Assembly: GCA_002069965.1 (NCBI GenBank)
Contig: MWCI01000006.1
Location: forward strand, 888 to 64,887
Origin: Spirochaetes bacterium ADurb.Bin218
GTDB taxonomy: Bacteria > Spirochaetota > UBA4802 > UBA5550
Direction of reading: 5' to 3'
Length of the DNA: 64,000 nucleotides
The notes under the pieces are model-generated. The model had not been told where the DNA came from. It did no database searches and saw only the letters and a list, made by a program, of their open reading frames with translations. Of this stretch, positions 20,906-37,604 are shown piece by piece (the first letter of the stretch is position 1; every line of letters starts with the position of its first letter). The position numbers and the translations under genes were made by a program.

Positions 20906-20944
20906 AAAAAATTTTCTATGTCAATAAAATTATCTTTCTGCTAC

Positions 20945-21211: not shown

Positions 21212-21222
21212 ATTCCCCCCTG

Positions 21223-21603: not shown

Positions 21604-21744
21604 GATAGTTTATAAACCATGGATGTAAAAAACTCAATCAGACAGAGGATATTTTTTTGCGGGATTTTATCTATTTATAATGACAGAATAAAGATGACAA
21701 AAAGGAAGTAAAACCTTACCTCTTTGTAGGATAAAAGAGGACAG

Positions 21745-22380
21745 CTATATATCAAGGAGATTGTTCTTTATTACGTAATGTGTAATTTCTGAATTATTTT
21801 TCATGTTCATTTTTTCAAGGAGTCTCTGCCTGTATGTACTTACAGTTTTTACGCTTAAAAAAAGCTCTGAGGCAATTTCTGAAACTGTTTTTCCCGAGGC
21901 TATCATACACATAACCTGAAACTCTCTGTCTGTTAGAGATTCATGGGGAAGCTGAGTCCCTCCTCCTGCAAGGGCCTCTGCAAGGGTTTCTGCAAGAGTT
22001 GGGCTTATATATTTGCCACCTGAGGCAACCTTTTTTATGGCAACAACAAGATTTTCACCTGCTGAATCCTTTGTAACGTATCCGGATGCTCCTGCCTTAA
22101 TAGTTCTTACTGCATATTGATCCTCTGAGTGCATACTTAAAACAATTATAGGGAGATTGGGCTTTATTGTCTTTATATGTTTTATAGCCTCTATTCCGCT
22201 TATGCCAGACATCTTGATATCAAGAAGCACAACGTCATAATCATTTTTCTTTACAAGCTCTATGAGGTGTTCTCCGCTTTTTGCCTCCCCTGTAACTTCC
22301 ATCTCAGGATCATCTGCAATAAGCTGTTTTAACCCAGCTCTAACTATGTCGTGATCATCTGCTATAACTATCCTTATCAT
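21745..22380 (-). CDS. NarL/LuxR-family response regulator (REC + LuxR HTH)
   Basis: MIRIVIADDHDIVRAGLKQLI...LTDREFQVMCMIASGKTVSEIASELFLSVKTVSTYRQRLLEKM. Confidence 0.9.
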   Translation of the reverse strand: MIRIVIADDHDIVRAGLKQLIADDPEMEVTGEAKSGEHLIELVKKNDYDVVLLDIKMSGISGIEAIKHIKTIKPNLPIIVLSMHSEDQYAVRTIKAGASGYVTKDSAGENLVVAIKKVASGGKYISPTLAETLAEALAGGGTQLPHESLTDREFQVMCMIASGKTVSEIASELFLSVKTVSTYRQRLLEKMNMKNNSEITHYVIKNNLLDI

Positions 22381-22389
22381 AAAATCCTT

Positions 22390-23799
22390 TTACTCTGGAA
22401 TGAGAACTCTAACAGTTGTTCCAGAGCCTCCCTCTATAAAAAAATTACCATTAAGATTTTCAACCCTTTCTTTCATGCCGATTATTCCATAGGATCCTTT
22501 AGTTTTTAGATCCTCAGGTGATATGCCTTTGCCATTATCTCTTATAGTTAGCTCTATGTAATCCTCTTTTCTCCTTAGATTTATGGAAACCTTTGTTGCA
22601 CTGGAATGCTTCATTATATTTGTAAGGCACTCCTGAAAAATTCTGAAAAGAGCTATTGATTTATCGGAAGAGAGTGATAGATGCTCGCAGTGGACGTCGA
22701 AGTCCATTCCAGTCCTTTTTGAGAATTCCTCGGCCTGCCACTCTATGGCTGCAGATAATCCCAGATCATCCAGTATGCCTGGCCTAAGCTGAGAGGAAAT
22801 CTTCCGCACGTTGCCTATTATATCGTTTATAATCCCTTCCATTGTTAAAAGCTTTGATGCTATATCACTTTCGGCAGAGGCTAATTTCTTTTTTAGCCAT
22901 GATAGATCAAGTTTTAATGCAGTGAGAGCCTGTCCCAGTACATCATGAATTTCTCGTGCAATATCGGTGCGCTCCTGCTCTCTCATCTTTTCTATGTGTG
23001 TTGTGAGCTCTTTTAATTCCTGGCGGGATCTCAGTATTTCTTGAAGATATAGCTTATGTTGAGTAATATCCCTTATTATTCCCTGATAGCCTGAGCCATT
23101 ACCAAAATCGTTTCTCTTGACAGAGATCTGAGCATTGATCACAGAACCGTTGCGACTTTTCATCTCTGCCTCAAAATTACTCACAGAGCCATATCGCAAA
23201 GCAAGATCAATCACCTTTAGATATTCTGTTTTATCAACAAAAAACTCTGAGGCAAAGCGGCCAACAATATCTTCAAAATTATATCCAAAGAGCTCAAGCA
23301 TTGCACTATTTACATCTATAATCTTAGCCTCTTCATCTGCAATAAAAATAGGGTCAAGGGATTGTTCAAAGAGTGTTCGGTATTTTAGCTCACTTCTTTT
23401 AAGCTCTTTGTCCATCTCGAATCTATGAAGAGCGATTTCAATTGATGTGTATAAATCCCTCTCGTCAATTGGCTTTACTATGTATCCATAGGGGCCTGTT
23501 TTATTTGCTCTCCCAAGGGAATTGTCATCTGTGTGTGCAGTAAGGTATATTATTGGGACTTCAAAATTTTTTCTGATGATTTCTGCTGCAGAAATTCCGT
23601 CAATTTCACCCGCAAGCATTATATCCATAAGCACAACGTCAGGGCTTTCTTTTTTAACAAATTCAATGCTATCTTCCCCAGTGTGGGTAATGCCTATAAC
23701 TTTATATCCAAGCTGGTTAAGCACCTGCTCAAGATTCAAAGCTATGACAACCTGGTCCTCAACTATAAGGATTTTTTTACCCGACGAGAGGCTCTCCAT
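22390..23799 (-). CDS. hybrid REC-PAS-histidine kinase (HisKA_3/NarX-type)
   Basis: N-terminal receiver (KILIVEDQVVIAL...VVLMDIML), PAS, HisKA_3 H-box IAREIHDVLGQALTALKL, and HATPase_c RDNGKGI...GIIGMKERV. Confidence 0.8.
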   Translation of the reverse strand: MESLSSGKKILIVEDQVVIALNLEQVLNQLGYKVIGITHTGEDSIEFVKKESPDVVLMDIMLAGEIDGISAAEIIRKNFEVPIIYLTAHTDDNSLGRANKTGPYGYIVKPIDERDLYTSIEIALHRFEMDKELKRSELKYRTLFEQSLDPIFIADEEAKIIDVNSAMLELFGYNFEDIVGRFASEFFVDKTEYLKVIDLALRYGSVSNFEAEMKSRNGSVINAQISVKRNDFGNGSGYQGIIRDITQHKLYLQEILRSRQELKELTTHIEKMREQERTDIAREIHDVLGQALTALKLDLSWLKKKLASAESDIASKLLTMEGIINDIIGNVRKISSQLRPGILDDLGLSAAIEWQAEEFSKRTGMDFDVHCEHLSLSSDKSIALFRIFQECLTNIMKHSSATKVSINLRRKEDYIELTIRDNGKGISPEDLKTKGSYGIIGMKERVENLNGNFFIEGGSGTTVRVLIPE

Positions 23800-23935
23800 T
23801 TTTTAGAACAGTTCCCCCAATCAAAAATTTTAGAAAATTTTTAGTAAACCCGGACGGATTTATTTTGAACTAAAGATTTAAAATTGTCAAGGAGTTACTT
23901 TAAAATATGGAAATTAAAATAAAAAAAGTATCCTT

Positions 23936-24502
23936 TTAGTGTTTATCTTTGCTCATCTCCAGGTATAAACGAGCAGATCCTCTCTCTGGTTTTTTTATAA
24001 GTGACATAAGGAAGAAGAAATCCATAAGAGGAATAGATAGAGGGAAAAACACAGACTCAATAAACAAAATTCTGTAAAAAGTGCTGAGAAGAGTGTCATT
24101 GAGTTTTATAATTCTCAAATCAATAAAGCGGCTATATCTTGCTGCATCATAAAAGACTGTTCCACAGGTATTTAGAGATGTTTTTGCTCCTGCAAAGGAG
24201 AGCCACAGGCTAAGTCCCCCTCCTTTTTTTAAGTCATCAGGCAATTGCTTGTTTATTGCCCATTGAAGAGCAGTAGCATATTCACGAGTTTTTTCATCAA
24301 GGCCTTTATCCGCTTGCATTGCAGAAAGATGAAATCTATGATAATCAATAGCAGCCGATAAAATTTTTCTCCACCAGATTCTGCGAAATCTTCCATAAAA
24401 ATATAGAATTCCAAAAGCTGCAATCCAGAGAAAAATTTCTGAAAAGAGAGTTACCACATTCAAAATTGAAATATAAATATTTTGAAAATTACTTGCCAGC
24501 AT
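23936..24502 (-). CDS. hypothetical membrane protein
   Basis: The ORF carries hydrophobic segments. No recognisable domain. Confidence 0.4.
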   Translation of the reverse strand: MLASNFQNIYISILNVVTLFSEIFLWIAAFGILYFYGRFRRIWWRKILSAAIDYHRFHLSAMQADKGLDEKTREYATALQWAINKQLPDDLKKGGGLSLWLSFAGAKTSLNTCGTVFYDAARYSRFIDLRIIKLNDTLLSTFYRILFIESVFFPLSIPLMDFFFLMSLIKKPERGSARLYLEMSKDKH

Positions 24503-25172
24503 TTTTTAGTCTTTCCAAAACCTTTCCAAGTCTTTCCATTGATTTTTGAACAGAAGAGTTCTGTGAATATAAATTCATTTTAAAAAAAGCGTTATTTAGT
24601 GAAGGTTCCAGAGCCTTGAGAGTTTCTGCTTCATATTTTAATTCATCAGGGGGAGAGGAGTAAAAATTTTTTAATTCGGGATATTTTTTGTTAACCCTTT
24701 CCATCTCTGGTAAGAGATTTTCTATATCAGTTGAAAAGGTATCAATAGTTGCGGCTATAATAGAAGCTTCTTCTGTTGACTCTATTGAAAATATAAAATT
24801 TTCATAAATCTTTATAAGGCTGTTCAATACCTTTTTGGCATCTCCATAGCGCAAAGAAGAGTTATCATTATCAAAAAAAAACACAGGTGAATTTTCCAGA
24901 TTGCTTAAATTTCCTTTATCATCTATAGCCTTTGCCCTTATGTATTTTTCACATATCTCCACAACTGTAAACTTTAGAAGTGATTTTTCATATTTAACAG
25001 ATACAATAGAATTTTTTGATATAATGAGAGATGGATTTTCAACATTTGAATAAATCATAATCTCTCCCCTGCCATTGGCAAAAATAACATTGCCAATCTG
25101 CCTTGGTTCAGAGCTTGCAAAGAGAGAATTAGCAAAAAGCAATATAATTAAAATCGCAGAAGATGCTTTCAT
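24489..25172 (-). CDS. hypothetical secreted protein
   Basis: N-terminal signal peptide MKASSAILIILLFANSLFASS. No recognisable domain. Confidence 0.4.
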   Translation of the reverse strand: MKASSAILIILLFANSLFASSEPRQIGNVIFANGRGEIMIYSNVENPSLIISKNSIVSVKYEKSLLKFTVVEICEKYIRAKAIDDKGNLSNLENSPVFFFDNDNSSLRYGDAKKVLNSLIKIYENFIFSIESTEEASIIAATIDTFSTDIENLLPEMERVNKKYPELKNFYSSPPDELKYEAETLKALEPSLNNAFFKMNLYSQNSSVQKSMERLGKVLERLKNAGK

Positions 25173-25240
25173 ATTTTACCAGCCACAGCAGATACATATT
25201 TATGTTTTCCATATTTTACGTCAATCCCATTTAAAGCTTT

Positions 25241-26365
25241 TTATTTTACAATATATTCTTTATTAAAATCCTCAGGGGAGATCCATATACTGCTTTTTTT
25301 TAAAGATACCTGAATGCTCTTTCCTGTAAAAAGCTCAAGCCTTCTGTATACAAGATTTGATAGTTCTATTTCCAGTTCAATCTCTTCTCTGTCATCAATA
25401 AAGAATATGGTATGAGTTGCAGTTTTTTCTGTAATAGATTTTACCTTTCCCTTTAATATATTTGGTTCAAGCAGAGGCTTAAGAGGTTCCCCATCCCTTA
25501 AAATCATCACCTCTTCTGCTCTAATGCCAAAAAATACAGCAGTAGAAGGAGATGGACTGGGCCTGTGTTCATGAAGTGTTGCAACAAAGCAATAGTTCTT
25601 ATAACTTATTGTAACCTGATGATTTTCATGATCAACAGATACAACCTTTCCATTAAAAATATTTCCCATGCCTGTAAAGAGTGCAACATTGAGTGTTCTT
25701 GGAAAAAAGTAAAGGGCGTTTTTTTTGCTCGTTTGTTCTATCTGGCCATTGAATATGAGAGATATAACATCTCCAAGAATAAAGGCCTCTTCTTGATCGT
25801 GAGTTACATGGAGAAAGGTTATGTTTGTTTCTCTATGTAGTTGTAGAAGAGTGGATACTATTTTTTTTCTAAGAGGCATGTCAAGGCTGGAGAGTGGCTC
25901 ATCAAGTAAAACTATATCTGGCTTGAGAAGCATTGCCCTTGCAATGGCAACTTTTTGCTTTTCACCACCACTTAAGTGAACTACTCTATTATTCAATAGA
26001 TATTCTATCTCAAGAATATTTATAAGGTATTCAAAGAATTCTTTTACCTTTTCAAAGGGTATTTTGTGAATATTTGCAGCAAAGAGAATATTTTCCCTTA
26101 CAGTTAAATTTGGAAACAAAAAGGAGTTCTGTGGTATAAAGCCAATGGCTCTTTCTTCTGGAGATAGCTCTGTCACATCAATGCCTCGGAGCAAAATCTT
26201 ACCTGATGAGATTTTATAAAAGCCCGCAATTGTTTGTAGTATAACGCTTTTACCTGCACCTGAGGGTCCAAGCAATATATAATATTCGCCTGGTCTGACA
26301 TTCATGAAAAAGTTATTCACTTTGAAATTGCCAAGTTTAAGAGATATATCTTGAAGTTTTATCAC
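25241..26365 (-). CDS. molybdate/tungstate ABC transporter ATP-binding protein (ModC/WtpC-like, with C-terminal TOBE domain)
   Basis: Walker A GPSGAGKS, ABC signature LSGGEKQKVAIARA, Walker B LLDEP. The C-terminal domain is about 130 aa and TOBE-like. Confidence 0.8.
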   Translation of the reverse strand: MIKLQDISLKLGNFKVNNFFMNVRPGEYYILLGPSGAGKSVILQTIAGFYKISSGKILLRGIDVTELSPEERAIGFIPQNSFLFPNLTVRENILFAANIHKIPFEKVKEFFEYLINILEIEYLLNNRVVHLSGGEKQKVAIARAMLLKPDIVLLDEPLSSLDMPLRKKIVSTLLQLHRETNITFLHVTHDQEEAFILGDVISLIFNGQIEQTSKKNALYFFPRTLNVALFTGMGNIFNGKVVSVDHENHQVTISYKNYCFVATLHEHRPSPSPSTAVFFGIRAEEVMILRDGEPLKPLLEPNILKGKVKSITEKTATHTIFFIDDREEIELEIELSNLVYRRLELFTGKSIQVSLKKSSIWISPEDFNKEYIVK

Positions 26366-27156
26366 AAGAAATAGCTCCTTCGGGAAAAATATTTTATGGT
26401 CAGCAGGGAAGCTACGGAAACCATTAAAAGCACTCCTGTAAAGATAAGTGCTCTGTCTACATCTGCAGAGGCAAAGCTCAAAAAAATGGATATAGGAATA
26501 GTTTCTGTAAGCCCAGGCATAGCTCCTGCAAGCATAATAGTTGCGCCAAACTCACCTATACATCTTGCCCATACAATAACAATAGAGGAGATGAGCCCAT
26601 TTTGAACCATAGGCAAAGTGACTTTGAAAAAAGCCTGAGACCTTGTACATCCAAGAATCCTTGCCATCTTTTCGTAAAAGGGATCTACTGAATCAAAGGC
26701 AGATTTAAGAAGCCTTATGGCTATAGATGTTACAATGGAAAATTGAGCAACAATGACACCTAAAAAAGAAAAGGCTACATCAATGCCAACTTTCTTCAAA
26801 AGCAAACCGGAGCTGCCGGAGAAAAATATAAGCAAAAGAGAGCCAAGAGCCACAGGGGATAAAAAAATCGGAATATCTATTATTGTATCTATAAATATGG
26901 AAAATTTGCTCCTATTTCTTGATAGGGAATAGGCACAGGGGATAGCTATGCTTATGGAAAGAAGAGATGCAATGGAGGAAGAGATAAGGCTTAGCCTTAG
27001 AGGTTTTAAGACCTCAGATGAAAAAAGCAATTCAAAAAAATTGCATGGTTTACAAAATATGTAAGCATTAACCACAAGAAGGCAATAGTATAAGGCAACA
27101 AAATATAAAAGTCCCTTTGACAAGGATAGTTGTTTTAGTCTATTTCCAGATTTCAT
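26362..27156 (-). CDS. ABC transporter permease (ModB/WtpB-like)
   Basis: Six-TM permease with an EAA-like loop, translationally coupled to the ATPase. Confidence 0.75.
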   Translation of the reverse strand: MKSGNRLKQLSLSKGLLYFVALYYCLLVVNAYIFCKPCNFFELLFSSEVLKPLRLSLISSSIASLLSISIAIPCAYSLSRNRSKFSIFIDTIIDIPIFLSPVALGSLLLIFFSGSSGLLLKKVGIDVAFSFLGVIVAQFSIVTSIAIRLLKSAFDSVDPFYEKMARILGCTRSQAFFKVTLPMVQNGLISSIVIVWARCIGEFGATIMLAGAMPGLTETIPISIFLSFASADVDRALIFTGVLLMVSVASLLTIKYFSRRSYFL

Positions 27157-27967
27157 TTATTTTGTAGTTTCCCCCAATAGAGATATTGCCATAGATGTTC
27201 TTTAATTCACCAGGTTCGGTTATATAGCCATATTTTTTATAGATCTCTTTCCCTTTTGCTGAAGATATAAAATTAAGGAACCTTATAGCATCTTCGGGAT
27301 TTGAACTGTAATTTGACAATGCAACAGGAATGTAGGCAGCTCTTTTTAAAAAGGCGCTATCAATTTTAATTGACTGTGAAGAATCAGGATTCCATTTTTC
27401 AAATACATCCCAACCAATTACTGCGTCAACTGCCTTCATCGATATTAAATTTGCTGTCTTTTCACAGCTTTCGCCATAGGTTTTAATTTTTTTTCGTGCT
27501 AAAGTGGCAAGTTCGGATTTTTCAAGGATTTCAGCAGCATATAGTCCAACGCATACGCTCCTTGGATCCCCAATGGCAAAAGTGACATCATCTCTTAATA
27601 GATCCTGCAAACCTTTTATATTTTTGGGATTGCTCTTTTGGACAATAATTGCAGGCACAAGGTAGGCTATAATTTTTACATCGCAAGCTTTAACAACTCC
27701 TTTGTCAATTGCAATATCCATGAAATCAGGAGAACCTGGTAGATATATATCCCCTCTTTTTGAGAGAATCATCTCAGAAAGGACAGTTCCAGAACCACCG
27801 TATATTCTCCTTACTTCAATACCTGTTTCTTTAGTAAAAAGATTGGCTATCTCATTTAATGGGGGGAGAGATGCGCTACCTGCAAAGACATCAATGCTTC
27901 TGTGAGTATTTTCTTTGCATGCAATAAAAATAATAGCAAAAATTAAAAGAGTTAGTTTTTTCTTCAT
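27140..27967 (-). CDS. periplasmic molybdate/tungstate-binding protein (ModA/WtpA-like)
   Basis: Signal peptide and type-II periplasmic binding fold. It heads a three-gene transporter operon. Confidence 0.7.
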   Translation of the reverse strand: MKKKLTLLIFAIIFIACKENTHRSIDVFAGSASLPPLNEIANLFTKETGIEVRRIYGGSGTVLSEMILSKRGDIYLPGSPDFMDIAIDKGVVKACDVKIIAYLVPAIIVQKSNPKNIKGLQDLLRDDVTFAIGDPRSVCVGLYAAEILEKSELATLARKKIKTYGESCEKTANLISMKAVDAVIGWDVFEKWNPDSSQSIKIDSAFLKRAAYIPVALSNYSSNPEDAIRFLNFISSAKGKEIYKKYGYITEPGELKNIYGNISIGGNYKINEIWK

Positions 27968-27980
27968 ATTCCCTCACATA

Positions 27981-28553
27981 TCACAGATAGAGATTTAAGC
28001 CATCGCAGATCAAACATTTCCCATTATCTCTTTCTCTAACAGGATATGCCTCTCCGCATTGACTGCATAGAGAAATTTTGCTACCCTTTTTTTTACCTAT
28101 AAAGTCTGGAGATACTTTAACTTCTTTTATATCAAGGATAGAAGCCCCTGCTGCAATTATCTCTCTAAAAAGAAGATCTTTATCCTGCTCCTGCTTTTTT
28201 TTAAGCTTTAAAAACCAGTTTTTTATCTCTGGAAAGTTTTCAAGCTTAGAAGCAGAGAGGTTGACTCTTACTCCATTGCCATTGTATTTATCAAAAACAG
28301 TTAAGGCAAATCGACCTGCATTTATTACCTTTAGCCATCCATTACCAAAGGTGCATGGCGTAAGCAACTGAATAGCATCTGGAAGACATGTCGCTGTCTC
28401 ACATATACAGTCGTAAAATTCGCACTCTGGTTTGTTTTTTAATGCAAGATCAACCATGAATCCCCCAATGAGAAGCCCTGGGGCACTGGAGCCATGGAAG
28501 TCCTCAATCATTTTCATATATTGTTCAATGGTATAAGAGCAGATAGTCGTCAT
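27981..28553 (-). CDS. FmdE/FwdE-family protein with C-terminal zinc ribbon
   Basis: SSAPGLLIGGFMVDLA FmdE core. The C-terminus carries CSQCGEAYPVRERDNGKCLICDG. Confidence 0.7.
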   Translation of the reverse strand: MTTICSYTIEQYMKMIEDFHGSSAPGLLIGGFMVDLALKNKPECEFYDCICETATCLPDAIQLLTPCTFGNGWLKVINAGRFALTVFDKYNGNGVRVNLSASKLENFPEIKNWFLKLKKKQEQDKDLLFREIIAAGASILDIKEVKVSPDFIGKKKGSKISLCSQCGEAYPVRERDNGKCLICDGLNLYL

Positions 28554-28597
28554 CTTGGTCTCCTTAAAGATTTGTTTTTTTAATTTAAAAATAAATA

Positions 28598-28705
28598 CAA
28601 GTATTTATTCATTAACTTCTATTAAAATAAAATACTCTCTTACCCCCGAAGCCTTCGGCGGTGAGGATAATTTACACTAAAAATTACATTTAGGAATAAT
28701 TAGTG
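28598..28705 (+). repeat. MITE-like dispersed element, copy D
   Basis: CAAGTATTTATTCATTAACTTCTATTAAAATAAAATACTCTCTTACCCCCGAAGCCTTCGGCGGTGAGGATAATTTACACTAAAAATTACATTTAGGAATAATTAGTG. Confidence 0.6.
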
Positions 28706-28750
28706 AAATAAATAAGATATTTTTAACATGTATAATTACTGTGTCAAATA

Positions 28751-28822
28751 AAAAAATACCGTATGGTATTTTTTTATTTGACGATTTGATTTTCTGTTGA
28801 CAAAAAATACCGTATGGTATTT
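28751..28822 (+). promoter_or_regulatory. duplicated palindromic operator overlapping the promoter of the Mo/W oxidoreductase operon
   Basis: AAAAAATACCGTATGGTATTTTTTT at 28751..28775. AAAAATACCGTATGGTATTT at 28803..28822, preceded by TTGACA (28797..28802) and followed by TATAAA. The arms AAAATACC/GGTATTTT are separated by the spacer gtat. Confidence 0.5.
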
Positions 28823-28853
28823 ATAAAAGCTTTAAGAATTAAAAGGGGGCGTT

Positions 28854-31088
28854 ATGGGACAGTGGAAAAAGAGCGGTTGTGTTTTATGTGCTCAAAACTG
28901 TGGTCTTGAGCTTGAGATAGAAAATAATAGAATTATCAAGGTGCGCGGCGACAGGGATAATCCGAGAAGTAAAGGTTATGTGTGCCGTAAGGGTATGAAT
29001 ATCGCCTATCATCAACATCACGCCGATAGGTTGACATATCCACTTAAAAAAACAGATAAAGGCTTTGTCCAGATAACATGGGATCAGGCTATAGAAGAAA
29101 TTTCTCAAAAGCTTAAAAGCATTATAGATCAATATGGTCCGAGATCTTATGCCTATATGGGTGGAGGAGGTCAGGGTTGCCATTTTGAGGCTGGTTTTGG
29201 TGTAACGCTTATGAGGTTGCTGGGTTCAAAATATCATTACAATGCCCTTGCTCAGGAGTTAACAGGACAGTTCTGGGCCCATGGACGGGCAACTGGTAGG
29301 CAATACAAATTTACAATACCAGATGAACATAATTGTGAGATGTTAGTTGCCATTGGATGGAACGGTATGGTAAGCCATCAGATCCCAAGAGCGCCAATAA
29401 TGTTAAAAGAGATTGCCAGGGATCCAAATAAACTCCTTGTTGTCATTGATCCGCGGAAAAGTGAAACGGCAGAAATTGCAGATATCCATCTGCCAATAAA
29501 ACCTGGCACTGATGCTTTGCTAACAAAGGCTATGATCTCCATTGTGATAAATGAGGGTTGGGTTGATGAAGAGTATATAAAAAATCACGTAAGCGGATAT
29601 GAAGCAATAAAGGGCTGGTTTAAGGATTTTGATGCAAAGTCTGCTGTGGAATTTTGTGGTCTTGATTATTCTCAGGTGAGGGATCTCTGTAAAGAGCTTA
29701 GAGTGAGGAAAAGTGCATACCATCCAGATCTTGGGGTCTACATGAATAGACATAGCACTCTTACCTCTTATCTTCAGATTATATTGTTTACAATTACAGG
29801 AAATTTCTGTGTCAAAGGGGGCAATGTTATTCCTGGGATGCTTATGCCAATTTCAGGTCACAGTGATGAGAGAGATGAAAAGACATGGAGAACTGTTGAG
29901 ACAGGATATCCTGCTTTATGTGGTCTATTCCCTCCAAATGTTATGCCAGAGGAGATACTCTCATCAAAACCTGATAGATTAAGAGCTGTTATGTGTTGCC
30001 AGAGTAATCCGCTTCGTTCCTTTGCTGATACAAAAGCCTATGAGGAAGCCTTTTCAAAGCTGGATCTTCTTGTAGTATGCGAAATCGCCATGACAGAAAC
30101 AGCAAAGCTTGCTCACTATGTGTTGCCCTCAAAATCAGCTTATGAATCCTGGGATGGAACATTCTTCCCATGGACATGGCCGGAGATCTATTTCCAGATG
30201 AGGCGCCCTATTGTTGATCCAGTTGGCGAGCCCTTAGAGATAAGTGAGATTCATACAAGAATTGCAGATAGAATGGGCTTTATTCCAGAGATACCTCAGG
30301 TGCTATATGATGCAGCAAGGGAAAATAGACTGAAATTTGGAATGGAACTAATGAACTATGTTAAAGAAAATCCAGCTGCTGCAAAGGTTCTTCCTTTTAT
30401 AATTGCAAAGACTCTTGGCAAAGAAATGGGTTCCACAAATCTTGCAAGCCTCTGGGCAATGTTGATGAATGCCCCAGGGAGTTTTAAAAAGAGTGCTGTG
30501 CGGCTTGGATTTAACAAGGGTCCTCTTCTTGGAGAGGAATTGTTTAAGGCAATAATAGATCACCCTGAAGGGCTTTGGATTGGAAAATCTGATGAGGATA
30601 ACTTTTCTGATTTAAGCACTGAAGATAAAAGAGTAAATATATTTATACCAGAAATGAAAGATTGGCTTGATGAGCTTGAAGTTGCAAAAGAAAGAGAAAA
30701 GCTGGAGTTTAATAAAAAATTCCCATTCATACTTTCTTCAGGTAGGCATTTCCCATATAATGCTAATACCCTTATGAGAGATCCGCAGTGGAACGATGGC
30801 AAGCGTGCCTGCACCTGTATAATGAATCCTCTGGATGCAGAAGAGTTGGGGCTTAAAGATGGTGATATTGTAAAGGTTGTGACAGAGGCTGCAGAGGTTG
30901 AAATTGAGCTTGAGCTTACAGAAGCAACATGTAGAAAATATATCATGATACCCCATGGATTTGGCCTTGAATATCAGGGAAAAACAACAGGGGTGAATGC
31001 TAATCTTCTTGCAAAGAATACTCACAGAGACCCCTTTGCTGGAACTCCATATCACAGGTATATACCATGTAGAGTAGAAAAGGCATAA
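28854..31088 (+). CDS. cytoplasmic molybdopterin/tungstopterin (MopB, bis-PGD) oxidoreductase of unknown substrate
   Basis: N-terminal 4Fe-4S motif CVLCAQNC...C with no Tat or Sec signal. At 744 aa the length fits, with no in-frame TGA. Confidence 0.8.
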   Translation: MGQWKKSGCVLCAQNCGLELEIENNRIIKVRGDRDNPRSKGYVCRKGMNIAYHQHHADRLTYPLKKTDKGFVQITWDQAIEEISQKLKSIIDQYGPRSYAYMGGGGQGCHFEAGFGVTLMRLLGSKYHYNALAQELTGQFWAHGRATGRQYKFTIPDEHNCEMLVAIGWNGMVSHQIPRAPIMLKEIARDPNKLLVVIDPRKSETAEIADIHLPIKPGTDALLTKAMISIVINEGWVDEEYIKNHVSGYEAIKGWFKDFDAKSAVEFCGLDYSQVRDLCKELRVRKSAYHPDLGVYMNRHSTLTSYLQIILFTITGNFCVKGGNVIPGMLMPISGHSDERDEKTWRTVETGYPALCGLFPPNVMPEEILSSKPDRLRAVMCCQSNPLRSFADTKAYEEAFSKLDLLVVCEIAMTETAKLAHYVLPSKSAYESWDGTFFPWTWPEIYFQMRRPIVDPVGEPLEISEIHTRIADRMGFIPEIPQVLYDAARENRLKFGMELMNYVKENPAAAKVLPFIIAKTLGKEMGSTNLASLWAMLMNAPGSFKKSAVRLGFNKGPLLGEELFKAIIDHPEGLWIGKSDEDNFSDLSTEDKRVNIFIPEMKDWLDELEVAKEREKLEFNKKFPFILSSGRHFPYNANTLMRDPQWNDGKRACTCIMNPLDAEELGLKDGDIVKVVTEAAEVEIELELTEATCRKYIMIPHGFGLEYQGKTTGVNANLLAKNTHRDPFAGTPYHRYIPCRVEKA

Positions 31089-31106
31089 GGAGGAATTTTT
31101 TTATAG

Positions 31107-31697
31107 ATGAACAAGTCCGAGAAAACACGTCAGTATATTATTGAGGTAGCATCTCCCATATTTAACAAGAAGGGTTATGCAGGCACCTCTCTTCGGGATA
31201 TAACTGAAGAAACAGGTCTCACAAAGGGTGCAATATATGGGAACTTTAATGATAAGGATGATCTTGCCCTTGCAGCTTTGGAGTATAATCTTGGGAAGAT
31301 ATCAAAAATAGTTTTTGATGAAACTGCCAGATACACAAATTCCTGCGATAAATTAATCTCAATGGCCGAGGCCTTTAAAAAAAACTATGAATTTTCCGTG
31401 AAGATGGGAGGTTGCCCTGTTGTTAATGCTGCTGTGGACTCAGACGATGGGAATCCTCTATTGAGGCAGAAGGTTGACCGATTTATAAAAAAATGGAAAA
31501 AATTTGTCACTTCAATTATTGATGATGGGAAAGAGAAGAGAGAGATAAAAGCAGAGATTGATTCCAATGCCTTTGCCATGATATTTTTATCTGCTCTTGA
31601 AGGTGGAGTTTTACTTTCCAAGGCTACAGGTAACAGAAAATATATAGATAGCGCTGCAGATCATCTCATATCTCTTTTAAAAGAAATGAGATTATAA
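31107..31697 (+). CDS. TetR family transcriptional regulator
   Basis: HTH IASPIFNKKGYAGTSLRDITEETGLTKGAIYGNFNDKDDL. It sits immediately downstream of the oxidoreductase gene. Confidence 0.8.
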   Translation: MNKSEKTRQYIIEVASPIFNKKGYAGTSLRDITEETGLTKGAIYGNFNDKDDLALAALEYNLGKISKIVFDETARYTNSCDKLISMAEAFKKNYEFSVKMGGCPVVNAAVDSDDGNPLLRQKVDRFIKKWKKFVTSIIDDGKEKREIKAEIDSNAFAMIFLSALEGGVLLSKATGNRKYIDSAADHLISLLKEMRL

Positions 31698-31721
31698 AAT
31701 TTAAATCCATGGGGGTTATTT

Positions 31722-32801
31722 ATGAGTAATATTTATTCTGCATTACAAAAACGATTGGATATGTATTCCCTTGGCTTCCCAGAGACAGAATCAAAAGTAG
31801 AGATAGATTTATTAAAAAATCTATTCTCAGAACAGGAGGCCAGGCTTTTTCTGGAATTGACTCCTGCTCTTGAGACTGCAGAGGTAATTGCTGTGCGTAT
31901 TGGCAAGGAGGTATCAGAGACAGAGCGCCAATTAAACTCTATGGTGAAGAAGGGATTACTTTTTAAAAAAACAAAAGATGGAATTGCAAAATATAGTGCT
32001 ATCCCATTCATGCACGGCTTGCTGGAATTTCAGATTAACCGCATGGATAAAAATTTAGCTCTTTTATTTCAGCAATACTATGATGAGGCTTTAAACAAGG
32101 CTGTGGCAAAAAGCGCAAATATGTTTTTACGTCCAGTTCCTGTAGTGGAGCAAACAATTATCCGCCTTGATGCAACTGTTGAAACAAAATCCCCTGTTGC
32201 AAGCTTTGAGGATGCTGCTGCAATTATACAAAAGGCCCCAGTGATTGCTGTTGCTCACTGTGTTTGTCGTAAAGAAAAAAATATAATAGGAAAGGGATGT
32301 GGCAAACCCATTGAAACCTGCTTTATGTTTGGATCAATGGCAGAGTATTATATAGAAAATAATCTTGGAAGGAAGCTCAGCGCTGATGAGGCTGTGTCAA
32401 TTGTTAAAAATGCTCAAAGGCAGGGTCTTGTAACTCAACCAGGAACAGCTCAAAATCCTGCGGGGATGTGCAGCTGTTGTGGGGATTGTTGTGGCGTATT
32501 GCTATCAATAAAGAAATTCCCAAAACCAGCGGAGATGGTTTTTTCAAATTATTATGCAGAAACTACTGATAACTGTAGTGCCTGTGGTCTCTGTACTGAT
32601 ATGTGTCAGATGGAGGCTATTGAAATTAAAGATAAGGCTCATGTTAATAAAGATCGCTGCATTGGTTGTGGTTTATGTGTTTTGTCCTGTCCAAATGAAG
32701 GAATTCAGCTTATACAGAAAGAGCAAACAAAAAAAATACCTCCAACAACCAGTGGTGAGCAGATGATGGAAATGGCAAAGCAGAGGGGATTGATTAAATA
32801 A
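31722..32801 (+). CDS. iron-sulfur protein with two 4Fe-4S ferredoxin motifs and an additional Cys-rich region
   Basis: CSACGLCTDMC and CIGCGLCVLSCP, plus HCVCRK...GCGKPIETC and CSCCGDCCG clusters. The N-terminal roughly 150 aa are of unknown function. Confidence 0.6.
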   Translation: MSNIYSALQKRLDMYSLGFPETESKVEIDLLKNLFSEQEARLFLELTPALETAEVIAVRIGKEVSETERQLNSMVKKGLLFKKTKDGIAKYSAIPFMHGLLEFQINRMDKNLALLFQQYYDEALNKAVAKSANMFLRPVPVVEQTIIRLDATVETKSPVASFEDAAAIIQKAPVIAVAHCVCRKEKNIIGKGCGKPIETCFMFGSMAEYYIENNLGRKLSADEAVSIVKNAQRQGLVTQPGTAQNPAGMCSCCGDCCGVLLSIKKFPKPAEMVFSNYYAETTDNCSACGLCTDMCQMEAIEIKDKAHVNKDRCIGCGLCVLSCPNEGIQLIQKEQTKKIPPTTSGEQMMEMAKQRGLIK

Positions 32802-32806
32802 AAAAT

Positions 32807-32829
32807 AACGCCACGAATTTCGTGGCGTT
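32807..32829 (-). terminator. intrinsic terminator between convergent genes
   Basis: The stem AACGCCACG/CGTGGCGTT has a 5-nt loop. On the minus strand AUUUUUU follows, terminating the PstS-like gene. Confidence 0.6.
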
Positions 32830-32849
32830 AAAACTATAAGAGTTAAAGC

Positions 32850-33677
32850 CTACTTAAGTGGGATAAAACCAGCCTCGGAAACAAGTTTTTGTCCATCTTT
32901 TCCGAGTATATAATTAACAAAGCCCTTTGCTTCTGCGGAGTAATTGTTTTCGTTTACATACATATAAAGTTTTCTTGAAATAGGATATTTGCCGCTTTTT
33001 CCATTTGCAAGAGTAGCTTTTACTCCATTAACATCCAGGGCTTTTATTGATTTGTCAAGATAGCCAAAGCCAATGTATCCTATGGCTTTTTTGTTATTTG
33101 CCACAGTGTTTACAACTGCACCATTTGATGCCTGCATAAGAGAATCTTTGCGTATGTCTGTTTTTTTCATAACATCCTCATGCCAGTATTCGTATGTTCC
33201 TGAGCTTGAATCTCTTGAGACAACAACTATATTCATGTCATCACCACCAACTTGCTTCCAGTTAGTTATTGAGCCATCATAAATTCCCTTAAGCTGATCC
33301 TTTGTGAGATTTTTAACCTTATTGGAAGGATGAACTATGGGGACAATCATATCGTAGGCAACGACTATTTCTTTAATTTTAAGTCCAGAGGATTTTGCCT
33401 TTTCCAGCTCCTCTTTTTTCATTTCTCTTGATGAATTTGCAATGTCGCATGTCCCTTCAAGCAGAGACTTTATACCATTGCCAGATCCACTACCTTCTAC
33501 AGAGACTGAAACAGCAGGCTTAATTATTTTGTATGCCTCAATAGCCTTCATTGTAATAGGGAGCACTGTGGTTGATCCTTTAATTACAACCTTACCGCTT
33601 TCTGCAGCAAGCAAAGCCCCTGAAAAAGCAAAAGCTATAAGGGCAATGAGTGAAAAAATTTTTTTACGCAAAAACAT
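32850..33677 (-). CDS. PstS-family (PBP_like_2) phosphate-binding periplasmic protein, orphan
   Basis: Signal peptide. GSTTVLPITMKAIEAYK...SVEGSGSGNGIKSL...DIANSSRE motifs of the PstS/PhoT family. No pstCAB is adjacent. Confidence 0.65.
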   Translation of the reverse strand: MFLRKKIFSLIALIAFAFSGALLAAESGKVVIKGSTTVLPITMKAIEAYKIIKPAVSVSVEGSGSGNGIKSLLEGTCDIANSSREMKKEELEKAKSSGLKIKEIVVAYDMIVPIVHPSNKVKNLTKDQLKGIYDGSITNWKQVGGDDMNIVVVSRDSSSGTYEYWHEDVMKKTDIRKDSLMQASNGAVVNTVANNKKAIGYIGFGYLDKSIKALDVNGVKATLANGKSGKYPISRKLYMYVNENNYSAEAKGFVNYILGKDGQKLVSEAGFIPLK

Positions 33678-33773
33678 AGAGTTAATTCTCCTTAATTTTA
33701 AAATTTATTCTATGGAGAATTAACTCTTCTTGTGTAAATTAATTATAAACAAAAAGTTGATTTATTGTAAAGA

Positions 33774-35348
33774 TTATACTCCGTCTGATTTAGACTTTTG
33801 ACTATGCCCAGCAGACTTTACATATTCAATCTTATTAAGGGCATCAACAAAGGACATGATCCCTGCAATGGAAACATCTATGCTCATGCCATTGCCAAAG
33901 ACCTTTATTACATTGCCATTGACCTCTTCTTCTACTGTAACAGAGACCTCGCATAAAGCATCAGAGCCTCCTGTAATAGCCACAAGGTTAAAGGCTTTTA
34001 TATTGGCCTTTGTTCCTGTCATTTTTTTTACAGCATTAACACCTGCATCAACTCCTCCGTTACCATGGGCAACCTCAAAAATAGCCTCAGTATCGCTTTG
34101 ATTGTCTCTTAAGGTTACCAGAGCCATAGGTGGAGAAAACATACCTGTTGAAATCTGAATATTCTTAACAACATATCTCCAGTTCTGTTCTTTTTTGTGA
34201 AGGACTTCCCCAATCATGGCAACAAGATCTTCATCATATATCTCTTTCTTTCTATCTGCAATACATTTAAATTTTGCAAAAAAGGCATCAACCTCCTCTG
34301 GTTTAAGCTCAAAGCCCAGTTCTTTAAGCCTTGAAAGCACAGCATGTCTCCCGGAGTGTTTACCAAGGACAAGTTTTGATCTTGTTATTCCAATATCCTC
34401 AGGTCTCATTATCTCATATGTCATTGCATGTTTAAGTACTCCATCTTGATGAATACCAGACTCATGTGCAAAGGCATTGTCCCCAACAATCGCTTTATTT
34501 GGTTGAACAGATACACCTGTTATATTTACAAGGAGTTTGCTTGTTTGCATAATCTGTTTTGTATTTATCTCTGTATAACAATTGAAGAGATCATTTCTGG
34601 TTTTTATTGCCATTACAAGTTCTTCCATGGCAGTATTGCCAGCTCTTTCACCAATACCATTTACTGTGCACTCCACCTGTCTTGCTCCAGCCTGAATAGC
34701 TGCAAGGGAATTGGCAACTGCAAGTCCAAGATCGTTATGGCAGTGGACAGATATAACTGCCTTATTTATATTTGGAACGTGATCAAAAAGGTATTTAATG
34801 AGATCGTAAAATTCAGTTGGAATTGTATAGCCAACAGTGTCTGGAATATTAACCGTTGTTGCACCTGCCTCTATAACAGCAGAGACCATCTCTGCAAGAT
34901 ACACTCTGTCGCTGCGAGTTGCATCCATTGGTGAAAACTCAACATTTGGGATAAACGAGCATGCATAAGATACAGCCTCAATTGCCTGACGCAAAACCTC
35001 TTCTCTTGTCTTTTTGAGCTGATATTCAATGTGGATATCAGAGCTTGATATAAATGTGTGTATACGTGGGTGGACTGCATTTTTCAAAGCTCTTGCTGCA
35101 GCCTCTATGTCCTTGTTGTTTGCCCTTGCAAGACCAGCAACCTGAGCTTTTTTTACTTTTTCTGCAATGGCACTAACTGCCTCAAAGTCACCATCAGATA
35201 TTACAGGAAAACCAGCTTCAATAACATCAACACCAAGCTTTTCCAGTTGCTCTGCAAATATTAGCTTTTCCTCAATATTCATGCTGAATCCAGGTGATTG
35301 TTCTCCATCTCGTAGAGTTGTATCAAATATTATTACTTTATTGTTCAT
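33774..35348 (-). CDS. leuA: 2-isopropylmalate synthase
   Basis: IIFDTTLRDGEQSPGFSMN HMGL-like barrel, plus the C-terminal LeuA dimerisation/regulatory domain. 524 aa. Confidence 0.85.
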   Translation of the reverse strand: MNNKVIIFDTTLRDGEQSPGFSMNIEEKLIFAEQLEKLGVDVIEAGFPVISDGDFEAVSAIAEKVKKAQVAGLARANNKDIEAAARALKNAVHPRIHTFISSSDIHIEYQLKKTREEVLRQAIEAVSYACSFIPNVEFSPMDATRSDRVYLAEMVSAVIEAGATTVNIPDTVGYTIPTEFYDLIKYLFDHVPNINKAVISVHCHNDLGLAVANSLAAIQAGARQVECTVNGIGERAGNTAMEELVMAIKTRNDLFNCYTEINTKQIMQTSKLLVNITGVSVQPNKAIVGDNAFAHESGIHQDGVLKHAMTYEIMRPEDIGITRSKLVLGKHSGRHAVLSRLKELGFELKPEEVDAFFAKFKCIADRKKEIYDEDLVAMIGEVLHKKEQNWRYVVKNIQISTGMFSPPMALVTLRDNQSDTEAIFEVAHGNGGVDAGVNAVKKMTGTKANIKAFNLVAITGGSDALCEVSVTVEEEVNGNVIKVFGNGMSIDVSIAGIMSFVDALNKIEYVKSAGHSQKSKSDGV

Positions 35349-35867: not shown

Positions 35868-37604
35868 TTATATCTTTTCAAATCTACTCTGGAAATAATT
35901 TTTGTAAATTTTAAGTCCAAGCTTGTTTTGTTGTTCTATTATTTCTTTTAAAATTTCAGGTGTTGTGAGAGGATTTATTGTAATTGCCCTGAGAACAACA
36001 CAATCTTGATAAAAATACTGAGGAGCATCTATCATGGTCCTTGACACAAAGCTATCATCTTCTTCTCTTATAGCCTTGTGAAGTTCTGTATTGAGATCAT
36101 TTAAGAGTAGATTTATTTTTTCTACCCGATTTAGATATTCCATTTTGATAAATTGATTCCTGTCATCTTTAAAATCTTCATTTTGAATTCTGCTCATAAG
36201 TTTATTGAGCTGTTCCTGAACATACTTTGGTACAAATCTATAATTAAAAATAAAAAGTTCAGGCTGATTCATTGCCTCAAAGTTGCAGTGCATTTCTACA
36301 AGACCTCTGAGAACTGATGTCAGCTCAAAGGCATAATCAAAGATCAGCTTAAATCCCTCTTTGCCAAAGATCTTTAATGTTGCCCATGGCTTAAGAGCTG
36401 CAAAGGGTCGAGATCCCTCTACGGAAAATCTTCCAAGGTCAACAGAATCCGGTCTTATTATATAGTTGGAATAGTGCTGCAATGCTCTAAGCTCTGTTCC
36501 GTTTCTAAAAAATACCATTCCAAGGGAGGGAGGAGCATACATTAGTTTATGAGCATCTACTGTTACAGAGTCAGCTTTTTCTATTCCGGAAAATAGATAT
36601 CTATATTCATCTGAAAGGAGTAAAGAGCCACCCCATGCAGCATCTACATGGAAAAAGGCATTATATTGTGTGGCAATTTTTCTAATCTCCTTAAGGTTAT
36701 CGATATTGCCTGTTTCAGTTGTCCCTGCAATTCCTACTATGGCAATTATCTTGGTCTTTGGACCTCCATTTAGGCCAGTTTCCTCAAGCTCTCTGCAGGT
36801 CTTTTCCAGTTTTATAATATCAATCTTATTTTTTGAATCAACAGGTATTTTTATTACATTTTGATTTCCCAGACCTATTGTTCTCCCAACCTTATCTATG
36901 GAATAGTGACCTCTCTTAGAAACAAGAATTACAGCTCTATCCACTCCATAATATTTATATGCCTCAGCAATTCCAGCCTCTCTAATACCAGGGAATCTGC
37001 CATGTGGCCCAAAGGCGAGATTACGGGCAGTTAAAAGAGCTGTCAGGTTTGCCATTGTGCCATCAAGGGTGAGATTTCCCAGAGCTATATCTTTATTCTG
37101 TATATTGGCCTTATAAAATTTTGTAGATCTGCGAAATATTATTCTGTGCATCCATGCAAGGAGTTCCTTTTCTACAAATGTGGATGCTTTTGCAGATTCA
37201 ATCTTCACCTGATTTTGATTAAGAGCTGCAATTATCATTTCAAGGAGAATCATGAAATAAGGAATGGCGCTTGTCATGTGGCCAATATAATAGGGATTGC
37301 CAACCTTTACAGAGTGGGCAATTATTTTTGTCTTTATCTCATAAAGAACATCTTTGAGTCTGTGGGGATTTTCTGGAATATCTATATTGGAAAAGATCTT
37401 TGCAAGTTCAGGCAAAAGTATTGAGCTGTGGATACCGCCTTTTTCTGTAAAGAATTTGTGGATCATATCCAGAAGTTCGTTGCCAAACTCATGGAATTTG
37501 TCCGGGGATTCAGGCATAATAAAAAGTTTGCGGATCTGCTCTATGTCAACAGGTATTCCATCTTTTGTTATATGCTGTTTATGATGTTTCTGGTTTGAAT
37601 ACAT
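35868..37604 (-). CDS. PLP-dependent group II decarboxylase (L-2,4-diaminobutyrate / tyrosine / glutamate decarboxylase family)
   Basis: PLP-Lys motif SVTVDAHKLMYAP and the PYYIGHMTS N-terminal motif of Pyridoxal_deC. 578 aa. Confidence 0.7.
   Translation of the reverse strand: MYSNQKHHKQHITKDGIPVDIEQIRKLFIMPESPDKFHEFGNELLDMIHKFFTEKGGIHSSILLPELAKIFSNIDIPENPHRLKDVLYEIKTKIIAHSVKVGNPYYIGHMTSAIPYFMILLEMIIAALNQNQVKIESAKASTFVEKELLAWMHRIIFRRSTKFYKANIQNKDIALGNLTLDGTMANLTALLTARNLAFGPHGRFPGIREAGIAEAYKYYGVDRAVILVSKRGHYSIDKVGRTIGLGNQNVIKIPVDSKNKIDIIKLEKTCRELEETGLNGGPKTKIIAIVGIAGTTETGNIDNLKEIRKIATQYNAFFHVDAAWGGSLLLSDEYRYLFSGIEKADSVTVDAHKLMYAPPSLGMVFFRNGTELRALQHYSNYIIRPDSVDLGRFSVEGSRPFAALKPWATLKIFGKEGFKLIFDYAFELTSVLRGLVEMHCNFEAMNQPELFIFNYRFVPKYVQEQLNKLMSRIQNEDFKDDRNQFIKMEYLNRVEKINLLLNDLNTELHKAIREEDDSFVSRTMIDAPQYFYQDCVVLRAITINPLTTPEILKEIIEQQNKLGLKIYKNYFQSRFEKI

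Follow-up and report, generated by a model that had tools for sequence, protein, structure and literature searches.

Within a 64,000-nucleotide stretch of contig MWCI01000006.1 from Spirochaetes bacterium ADurb.Bin218 (the window), we analysed two divergently oriented gene units built around the gene of a 744-amino-acid protein of the MopB family, whose members carry molybdenum (Mo) or tungsten (W) on a bis-pyranopterin cofactor. This protein, hereafter MopB, is likely to be a new type of soluble Mo/W-pterin enzyme, judging from a glutamate, Glu135, that falls at the position where its characterised relatives carry cysteine or selenocysteine (Sec). The MopB gene is followed by genes for a TetR-family repressor and for a 359-amino-acid protein with several Fe-S clusters (FeS359); on the opposite strand lie genes for an FmdE-family protein and a ModABC-like oxyanion importer. 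The best explanation overall, which we hold to be somewhat better than evenly probable, is that the two divergent units would form one inducible Mo/W-enzyme system with a MopB of the Glu135 type.

We assigned families by scanning Pfam and NCBIfam and judging each score against the curated cut-off. MopB belongs to the superfamily: its three domains all score above their Pfam cut-offs (Molybdop_Fe4S4, 46.8 bits against 22.7; Molybdopterin, 107 against 24; Molydop_binding, 62.1 against 26.8), and its AlphaFold2 model (predicted local distance difference test score, pLDDT, 86.7; predicted template modelling score 0.88) adopts the MopB fold. The model superposes on the structures of formate dehydrogenase (FDH), NapA, acetylene hydratase (Ahy), ArrA and PsrA with template modelling (TM) scores of 0.73-0.77 at 15-21% identity; since these values are nearly equal for the five, the fold is generic and designates no specific structural sibling. 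At the level of named families, no NCBIfam model reaches its cut-off. The open reading frame (ORF) opens at the first start codon following an upstream stop, and Cys9 is already the first ligand of the N-terminal [4Fe-4S] motif (codons 28878-28994, plus strand), which continues with Cys12, Cys16 and Cys44 and is followed by Arg45-Lys46-Gly47, all of them invariant in two family alignments. Because this leaves no room for an export signal and a twin-arginine motif is found in none of 120 close homologues, MopB is cytoplasmic, as had been proposed in a preliminary description of this DNA. In FDH-H, the lysine that follows the fourth cysteine passes electrons from the cluster to the pterin; its counterpart Lys46 is kept in 85 of 96 relatives, a conservation that argues for a redox-active enzyme carrying its cofactor. 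The conserved domains, together with the linkage to FmdE and to Mo/W-type importers described below, suggest that MopB binds Mo or W through a bis-pyranopterin cofactor.

The Mo/W-ligand position, to which the preliminary description had drawn attention, is where MopB departs from its relatives. We aligned 96 full-length representatives, the window MopB and three solved enzymes with L-INS-i (100 sequences) and found that Glu135, encoded with Gln134 by codons 29253-29258 (plus strand; local translation AQELT), shares its column with the Cys of FdhF, the Sec of the F420-dependent FDH and Cys141 of Ahy, while the His of FDH aligns to Leu136. The alignments of this region made first disagreed by two residues: of three HMMER alignments examined, including those to 9t1s and 2e7z, two place the ligand on Glu135. 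The L-INS-i alignment and the spacing of conserved glycines decided for Glu135. In the solved enzymes the ligand stands 11 residues past a conserved Gly and 13 ahead of the next one (GINNVDHCARLC...G in FdhF, GSPNWTSAMYMC...G in Ahy), and the invariant G124, E135 and G148 of the MopB family reproduce the same 11/13 spacing, which supports the register on Glu135. A local motif ahead of the ligand column, (L/F)M..LLGS, is common to Ahy and the MopB family. The glutamate is present in all 120 close homologues (as QEL in 109, AEL in 6 and QEF in 5), and no Cys lies at or adjoining the ligand column of the window MopB. Two further active-site features of the relatives were looked for in the alignments. 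The arginine motif of FDH, RGQNNVQG, whose Arg we take to be the active-site Arg333 of FDH-H, is missing, since opposite its stretch in 7qv7 the family profile has a gap; and the position of Asp13 of Ahy, the catalytic acid beside the second Fe-S cysteine, is occupied by Ala13 (CQSCDINC in Ahy, CVLCAQNC here). The reviews of the superfamily that we consulted name Ser, Cys, Sec, Asp and a terminal hydroxide as ligands, and no other. We infer that Glu135 probably binds the metal.

MopB is a member of a large and widespread group. More than 120 clusters, 63-97% identical to the window MopB, originate from Spirochaetota, Deltaproteobacteria and Desulfomonilia; scanning of genomes extended the range to Syntrophaceae, Smithella, Desulfosarcina, Dehalococcoidia and Bacillota, with a single cultured representative, Desulfosarcina cetonica JCM 12296. 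The source names of the cluster members are generic and metagenomic throughout, some homologues being called 'anaerobic selenocysteine-containing dehydrogenase' or 'formate dehydrogenase', and a literature search on this clade in Smithella, Syntrophus or Desulfosarcina returned nothing relevant. When 1.84 billion representative proteins were searched exhaustively with the profile, 2,100 matched at E <= 1e-30. When the full-length matches are ordered by score, the ligand column holds Glu in all 26 scorable sequences of ranks 1-40, 6 Glu and 2 Asp at ranks 41-60, and 50 Asp, 6 Glu and 5 Cys at ranks 61-150; ten Glu- or Asp-type representatives missed every NCBIfam cut-off. We then built a neighbour-joining tree on the N-terminal half of the protein (106 sequences, 361 columns, 100 bootstraps). 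The 92 Glu- or Asp-type sequences form a single clade (98/100) without any Cys/Sec-type reference. Outside it fall the four FDHs (100/100), Ahy with an Ahy-like protein of Desulfococcus oleovorans (100/100), the dehydroxylases Cldh and Dodh (100/100), Dadh, and the Cys-type representatives; Ahy, at a distance of 1.69, is the nearest characterised enzyme. As judged from sequence, the window MopB thus falls in the Glu-type branch of a large unnamed MopB lineage whose ligand position is occupied by a carboxylate residue. The Asp-type sequences (P0292-P0390) themselves make up a large set of cytoplasmic MopB proteins, about 690-790 residues long, with the ligand-column motifs SQDC, TVDQ and QDT, many of them with a CRICE-type N-terminal Fe-S motif and none reaching an NCBIfam cut-off; they appear to be another uncharacterised lineage, either a sister group or a paraphyletic stem of the Glu type.

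The genes around MopB recur with it. Gaps of only 18 and 24 nt separate MopB, TetR and FeS359, which fits a single operon, and an unbiased clustering of neighbours within 7 kb in 51 loci returned FeS359 (18 loci), TetR (15) and FmdE (10) as the top three partners, implying that their adjacency to MopB is not due to chance. FeS359 has 17 conserved cysteines. Eight of them make up two ferredoxin motifs and the remainder group as C180/C182/C193/C200 and C250/C252/C253/C256/C257, which would allow up to four clusters in all. Its AlphaFold2 model (pLDDT 85.4) opens with a winged-helix-like domain at the N-terminus, continues with a novel Cys-rich middle domain and ends in a 2x[4Fe-4S] ferredoxin domain. 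A search of the PDB found no whole-chain match, only domain-level matches to ferredoxins and to ArsR/SmtB-type winged helices, and sequence matches are confined to the ferredoxin domain, so that a known fold for the whole protein is ruled out. FeS359 is probably an electron relay and redox partner of MopB, and a frequent rather than an obligate one. A TetR (TetR_C_13)-FeS359 pair is also found without MopB, as a bare pair in Desulfatiferula olefinivorans and, in another genome, on either side of a QueG-like Fer4_16+HEAT_2 protein and a DUF1330 protein, which points to a portable redox module and not a dedicated subunit. In two loci (L019 and L047) a gene for an NAD(P)H-dependent flavin mononucleotide (FMN) reductase lies downstream of MopB-FeS359, and this reductase is a plausible electron input there.

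The TetR protein combines TetR_N (PF00440, 48 bits) with the ligand-binding domain TetR_C_13 (PF16925, 76 bits), and its nearest structures, 3eup and 3qbm, both have generic TetR names only. Within the 300 bp between the divergent units, ATACCGTATGGTAT occurs twice without mismatch, the second time at 28807-28820; this palindrome has the pattern ATACC-N4-GGTAT, for which 0.09 chance matches are expected at up to two mismatches. Copy 1 adjoins a promoter-like site of the minus strand (-35 at 28747-28742). Copy 2, 33 nt from the MopB start codon, is embedded in a putative MopB promoter made of TTGACA (28797-28802), the operator and an A/T-rich -10-like element, TTTATAAA (28820-28827). Elsewhere, the palindrome was found in only 5 of 62 loci (L006, L017, L023, L028 and L041), and these are the loci that have the nearest TetR orthologues, 41-44% identical to the TetR of the window. 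It stands there 11-46 nt upstream of TetR and, in four of the five, a second copy stands 6-42 nt upstream of FeS359. This co-variation of palindrome and TetR orthologue across phyla argues strongly for the palindrome as the TetR operator, and we regard ATACC-N4-GGTAT as most likely to be that operator; the sharing of the palindrome implies that TetR, FeS359 and MopB are co-regulated. The suggestion, made from the presence of a TetR gene in the operon, that a small molecule induces the system gains support from this conserved site. In other loci MopB is preceded by PadR (5 loci) or MarR (6 loci), and a TetR, PadR or MarR gene lies at most two genes away from MopB in 26 of 50 loci. Because the regulators change between loci, the MopB gene behaves as a cassette placed under different ligand-sensing regulators.

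The minus-strand unit is predicted to supply the metal. FmdE scores above the cut-offs of both PF02663 (118.5 bits against 22.9) and the treble-clef finger PF23475 (28.3 against 23.2), in agreement with its earlier description as an FmdE/FwdE-family zinc-ribbon protein, and matches PDB 3d00, the FmdE homologue of Syntrophus aciditrophicus, at E = 5.8e-69. The binding protein passes the ModA cut-off (TIGR01256, 76.3 bits against 62.5; PF13531, 164 bits). The permease aligns with TIGR01581 (186.6 bits, cut-off 210) and with modB TIGR02141 (159.8, cut-off 182.6), and the ATPase over its full length with WtpC NF040840 (262.6, cut-off 440) and ModC TIGR02142 (180.9, cut-off 285). The ATPase had been described as carrying a TOBE domain: its ModC/WtpC-like character stands, while the TOBE match itself is weak (18.5 bits against a cut-off of 22.3). 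Most FmdE-family genes adjoin metal-ion transporter genes, and only 13 of 208 adjoin fmd genes (PMC2954224). Here, FmdE homologues were found by tblastn beside the MopB gene in 13 other loci, including other phyla, so that FmdE is linked to the MopB gene itself and not just to the transporter; its role may thus lie in Mo/W handling or in maturation of the enzyme. FmdE is usually encoded directly downstream of MopB, and diverse membrane transporters then follow. The order is MopB-binding protein-permease-ATPase-FmdE on one strand in L015; a MOT1-type molybdate transporter of the major facilitator superfamily follows MopB or MopB-FmdE in L006 and L008 (PF16983, E = 6e-50; L006:12235-13419), a TauE/SafE anion permease follows MopB or MopB-FmdE in L016 (12953-13690) and L046, an unannotated membrane protein and then an NTPase are found in L011 and L053, and this membrane protein alone follows MopB in L009 and L045. 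The occurrence of non-homologous importers at the same position argues for a functional link between the enzyme, FmdE and metal supply. Methanogen fmd/fwd operons likewise encode a treble-clef FmdE-family protein with a MopB-family catalytic protein (FmdB/FwdB); unlike them, the window lacks the other formylmethanofuran dehydrogenase subunits, FmdE sits with oxyanion transporters, and MopB scores 47 bits with FwdB (TIGR03129, cut-off 328). No molybdenum cofactor (Moco) or tungsten-cofactor riboswitch was matched in 23000-34000 even at E <= 1.

Several observations concern these transporters and their surroundings. The TauE-family permeases beside FmdE might be unrecognised Mo/W transporters. 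In L065, a 97%-identical relative, the ABC (ATP-binding cassette) permease is not called and three short plus-strand ORFs stand in its place (L065:5531-6306), which reflects a frameshift, a pseudogene or else an error of the assembly; the gene is intact in L066, a second assembly from this lineage. Two ORFs without significant family match lie at 23936-25172 (minus strand), 68 nt downstream of the ATPase gene and on the same strand. They encode 227 residues with a signal-peptide-like N-terminus and 188 residues resembling a membrane protein, overlap by 14 nt and keep their synteny in L065 and L066; they may belong to the transporter operon. A PstS-family protein is encoded at 32850-33677 (minus strand), convergent to FeS359 and with no PstCAB genes beside it; it was considered as a TupA-type tungstate binder and this was ruled out, since it scores 283.5 bits against a cut-off of 206.6 with TIGR02136 and matches phosphate-binding structures.

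We weighed these data against more ordinary identities for MopB. An FdhF-type FDH or an assimilatory nitrate reductase (NasA/NarB/NasC) would fit its size, N-terminal 4Fe-4S motif and cytoplasmic location; FDHs are the top matches of the family profile among solved structures (FdhF of the hydrogen-dependent CO2 reductase, HDCR, 7qv7, 215.6 bits, with about equal scores for Ahy, 212.9, and the F420-dependent FDH, 210.5), and Fdh-alpha (TIGR01591) is the best NCBIfam match. However, that match reaches only 251 of the 666.25 bits required, with still wider gaps for NasC (176.6 against 1100), NasA (119.2 against 1000) and PhsA (164 against 694). MopB shares with FDH-H and HDCR FdhF (1aa6, 7qv7) the fold, the size, the Fe-S motif, the Lys after the fourth Cys and the highest raw profile scores, but the Cys/Sec-His pair is replaced by Glu135-Leu136, RGQNNVQG has no counterpart and the FDHs form their own clade. 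Clustering with FDH or nitrate reductase, the outcome that the preliminary description had named as making this an ordinary enzyme, was not found; cut-offs, active-site residues and phylogeny rule out both identities at the sequence level, and we consider them hardly credible. A hydratase working like Ahy, which would add water to an unsaturated small molecule, leave the Fe-S cluster unused in turnover and employ Glu135 as a general acid/base or ligand, accords with Ahy being the nearest characterised enzyme (25% identical over its full length, with 190 bits against the family profile and the smallest distance in the tree). Ahy (2e7z), the tungsten-bis-molybdopterin guanine dinucleotide (MGD) enzyme of Pelobacter/Syntrophotalea acetylenica, is likewise soluble, cytoplasmic, single-subunit and of similar size (about 730-745 residues), with an N-terminal [4Fe-4S] motif, the local motif noted above and a TM score of 0.75. 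Membership is nevertheless ruled out, since Cys141 and Asp13 of Ahy are replaced by Glu135 and Ala13 and MopB lies outside the Ahy clade; in addition, MopB differs from Ahy in its linkage to redox partners and ligand-sensing regulators, and the conserved Lys46 relay, the recurring Fe-S partners and the FMN reductase in two loci point to redox turnover, making a hydratase function unlikely. The preliminary description had named acetylene-hydratase-like and FdhF-like enzymes as candidates: these are indeed the nearest neighbours, but MopB belongs to neither. Among enzymes with a carboxylate at the ligand position, those of Type II (NarG, ethylbenzene dehydrogenase, perchlorate reductase), in which Asp is a recognised ligand, match the family only distantly (78-80 bits). 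They are multi-subunit, mostly membrane-associated or periplasmic complexes with solved catalytic subunits of about 900-980 residues, whereas the carboxylate of the window MopB sits in an FDH/Ahy-like soluble scaffold and is Glu in its subclade. A metallopterin-dependent ergothioneine synthase (PMC9516567) was also ruled out: it has a Cys ligand and a cysteine desulfurase fusion, neither of which is present here.

A functional parallel is offered by the soluble catechol dehydroxylases of gut bacteria (Dodh/Cldh), after which MopB would be a substrate-induced reductive dehydroxylase of a phenolic compound served by a small Fe-S partner. The regulators adjoining MopB genes, PadR, MarR and TetR, belong to families that often sense phenolic or hydrophobic compounds, and an old-yellow-enzyme homologue and a Rieske protein are encoded downstream of MopB in Desulfosarcina-type loci. 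Dodh and Cldh are soluble, Ahy-related bis-MGD enzymes without a signal for twin-arginine translocation (TAT), co-encoded with a small 4Fe-4S protein, substrate-induced and with homologues in Desulfomonile, Desulfobacula and Geobacter (PMC7028382). MopB resembles them in having no TAT signal, in being a predicted bis-MGD enzyme related to Ahy, in its co-encoded Fe-S protein and in its place under a dedicated regulator predicted to respond to a small molecule. Using the Dadh, Cadh, Cldh, Dodh and Ahy sequences of the eLife 2020 supplementary alignment (PMC7028382), we found that the family profile gives Cldh 115, Dodh 110 and Dadh 84 bits, all below Ahy, and that the dehydroxylases read Cys-x-x-Pro-Arg in the ligand region (QICKGPR, DSCMLPR, DSCYQPR; the signature is our own observation on four sequences) against AQELTGQ here. 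MopB carries the N-terminal Cys4 Fe-S motif, which is reported to be absent from the Gordonibacter catalytic subunits (PMC11574389). It conforms neither to the Eggerthella type, TAT-exported with a membrane anchor, nor to the Gordonibacter type, soluble without Fe-S (PMC7028382, PMC11574389); the LuxR-type regulators and major-facilitator transporters of dehydroxylase clusters were not seen, and Cldh and Dodh fall outside the Glu/Asp clade. Profile scores, ligand motif, architecture and tree hence rule out membership, and we think a dehydroxylase reading rather unlikely, while an analogy of function is possible, with MopB as a soluble reductase that acts on an organic molecule and is induced by its substrate. 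MopB could also have lost its cofactor and be non-catalytic or purely electron-transferring, like QrcB or NuoG, a view suggested by the lack of a canonical ligand residue and a weak similarity to QrcB (NF041783). This is very unlikely, since the QrcB score is 112 bits against a cut-off of 440, Molybdopterin and Molydop_binding exceed theirs, identity of 63-81% is maintained across phyla with many invariant polar residues, and FmdE and Mo/W importers of two different types recur beside the gene. Finally, the ModABC-like operon might merely adjoin the enzyme and serve general Mo/W needs, in keeping with the scarcity of the ABC importer near MopB in other lineages, with the different gene context at 81% identity and with the lack of a Moco riboswitch match. 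Nonetheless FmdE, which heads the minus-strand operon, is found beside MopB in those 13 other loci, MOT1 or TauE-type transporters take the same position in L006/L008 and L016/L046, and operator copy 1 adjoins the minus-strand promoter-like site; we therefore regard mere adjacency as doubtful.

A number of points weigh against a single inducible system around a Glu-liganded MopB. Two alignments put the Cys of FDH on Ala133 rather than on Glu135; should this other register be correct, the metal would be without a ligand from the protein, as in arsenite oxidase, which would be unusual too, and the predicted coordination of the metal by Glu135 is read from the alignment. The tree is a simple one, made by neighbour-joining from half of the protein with few reference families and with representatives picked by their similarity to the query. 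About two thirds of the loci have no FeS359, the TetR-FeS359 pair occurs without a MopB gene (L059:5295-7071 and L061:3755-7068), and the winged-helix domain of FeS359 could mean a regulatory role. On the transport side, the ModB-like and ModC-like proteins stay under their family cut-offs, the best PDB match of the binding protein is PEB3 (59 bits) with ModA proteins at about 48 bits, and the occurrence of the ABC importer next to the enzyme is confined to L015 and the lineage of the window itself (L065, L066). The MopB promoter, lastly, is our own reading, which a strict consensus scan did not list.

The coordinates of the features are collected in Table 1; the seven ORFs and their families are those of the preliminary description, whose picture of a ModABC-like importer and FmdE divergent from a MopB-TetR-FeS operon agrees with the window ORFs and the family scans. 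The seven-gene layout is complete in 97%-identical relatives, and at 81% identity the context is already PadR-MopB-acyl-ACP (acyl carrier protein) thioesterase. The hairpin downstream of FeS359 coincides with a sub-threshold Rfam match to ncS54, a Burkholderia small RNA (32800-32852, minus strand; 29.2 bits against a gathering score of 43), which most likely is simply the hairpin.

Table 1. Features of the two divergent units in the window (positions are those of the window).
Feature	Position	Strand	Basis
ABC transporter ATPase with ModC/WtpC-like C-terminal regulatory (TOBE-like) extension	25241-26365	-	PF00005, 114 bits
ABC permease, ModB-like	26362-27156	-	PF00528, 53 bits
ModA-like periplasmic oxyanion-binding protein	27140-27967	-	TIGR01256, PF13531
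FmdE-family protein with C-terminal treble-clef zinc finger	27981-28553	-	PF02663, PF23475
Predicted operator, copy 1	28743-28782	.	core ATACCGTATGGTAT at 28756-28769, centre of an 18-nt perfect inverted repeat
Putative MopB promoter with predicted operator copy 2	28797-28827	+	sequence reading and motif search
Cytoplasmic MopB (Mo/W-bis-pyranopterin) enzyme, 744 aa	28854-31088	+	three Pfam domains
TetR-family repressor with TetR_C_13 ligand-binding domain	31107-31697	+	PF00440, PF16925
FeS359, multi-cluster Fe-S protein, 359 aa	31722-32801	+	conserved Cys, AlphaFold2 model
GC-rich hairpin, probable terminator, between the convergent FeS359 and PstS-family genes	32806-32830	.	11-bp stem, listed on minus strand

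Other genes were seen near MopB in relatives and elsewhere in the window. A Spirochaetota/Leptospirales subclade (L063:30-5722; L002, L003, L005, L010) has the order PadR-MopB-acyl-ACP thioesterase, to which L063 adds a convergent acyl-CoA synthetase gene, and genes for patatin-like phospholipases flank the enzyme in L014, L024 and L048. Neighbours of this lipid or hydrocarbon type (acyl-ACP thioesterase, acyl-CoA synthetase, patatin, enoyl-CoA hydratase) could point to a substrate derived from lipids or reflect shared ancestry alone; we did not adopt this theme, as such genes may be common in the hosts and the thioesterase linkage is confined to the one subclade. In the window, a group of two-component signalling genes stands directly past the transporter operon at 19034-23799 (minus strand), with products that comprise one HisKA_2 kinase, one response regulator of the GerE/LuxR type and one hybrid receiver + PAS + HisKA_3 kinase, and a second TetR-family regulator (18119-18772, minus strand) lies upstream of an acetyl-CoA hydrolase/transferase gene (16584-17930). 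The window also contains an ArsR-type helix-turn-helix (PF01022) fused to an S-adenosylmethionine-dependent methyltransferase domain (303 aa; 41237-42148, plus strand), genes for pyridoxal phosphate-dependent decarboxylases at 11456-13054 and 35868-37604, and a type III glutamine synthetase gene at 8911-11088.

Taken as one inducible system, the two units could work as follows. Without ligand, TetR bound to the two operators would repress the MopB operon, and perhaps also the transporter operon that diverges from it; binding of a small molecule, presumably the substrate or a related compound, would release TetR and induce the operon. The minus-strand operon would import the oxyanion, and FmdE would help in metal handling or cofactor insertion. 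Electrons, delivered to FeS359 by a ferredoxin or, in some organisms, by an FMN reductase, would pass through its clusters (up to four) to the N-terminal [4Fe-4S] cluster of MopB and, by way of Lys46 and the pterin, reach the metal. Two dithiolenes, and probably also the carboxylate of Glu135, would hold the Mo or W centre, at which a small, probably organic substrate would be reduced, or an oxygen atom added or removed; reduction or oxygen-atom transfer is the direction of catalysis that we would expect.

In Mo/W-pterin enzymes, a single metal-binding protein residue shapes reactivity. As a tentative proposal, one that we give somewhat less than an even chance, the Glu-type proteins would be the first Mo/W-bis-pyranopterin enzymes with a Glu-bound metal and would constitute, with the Asp type, an independent soluble carboxylate-ligand lineage performing new chemistry on organic molecules sensed by TetR, PadR or MarR regulators. 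FmdE, if this is true, would be not a methanogenesis protein but a general factor of Mo/W insertion or maturation, and its pairing with the enzyme and with two or more unrelated anion importers makes its role testable outside methanogens. The conserved operator provides an experimental handle, and the TetR ligand could reveal the substrate. Fold, type of cofactor and logic of the operon are familiar; what is of value is the glutamate at the ligand position in a large clade without a characterised member, and this Glu clade, found in Spirochaetota, Desulfobacterota, Dehalococcoidia and Bacillota, is a defined target for new enzyme chemistry in digester and sediment anaerobes.

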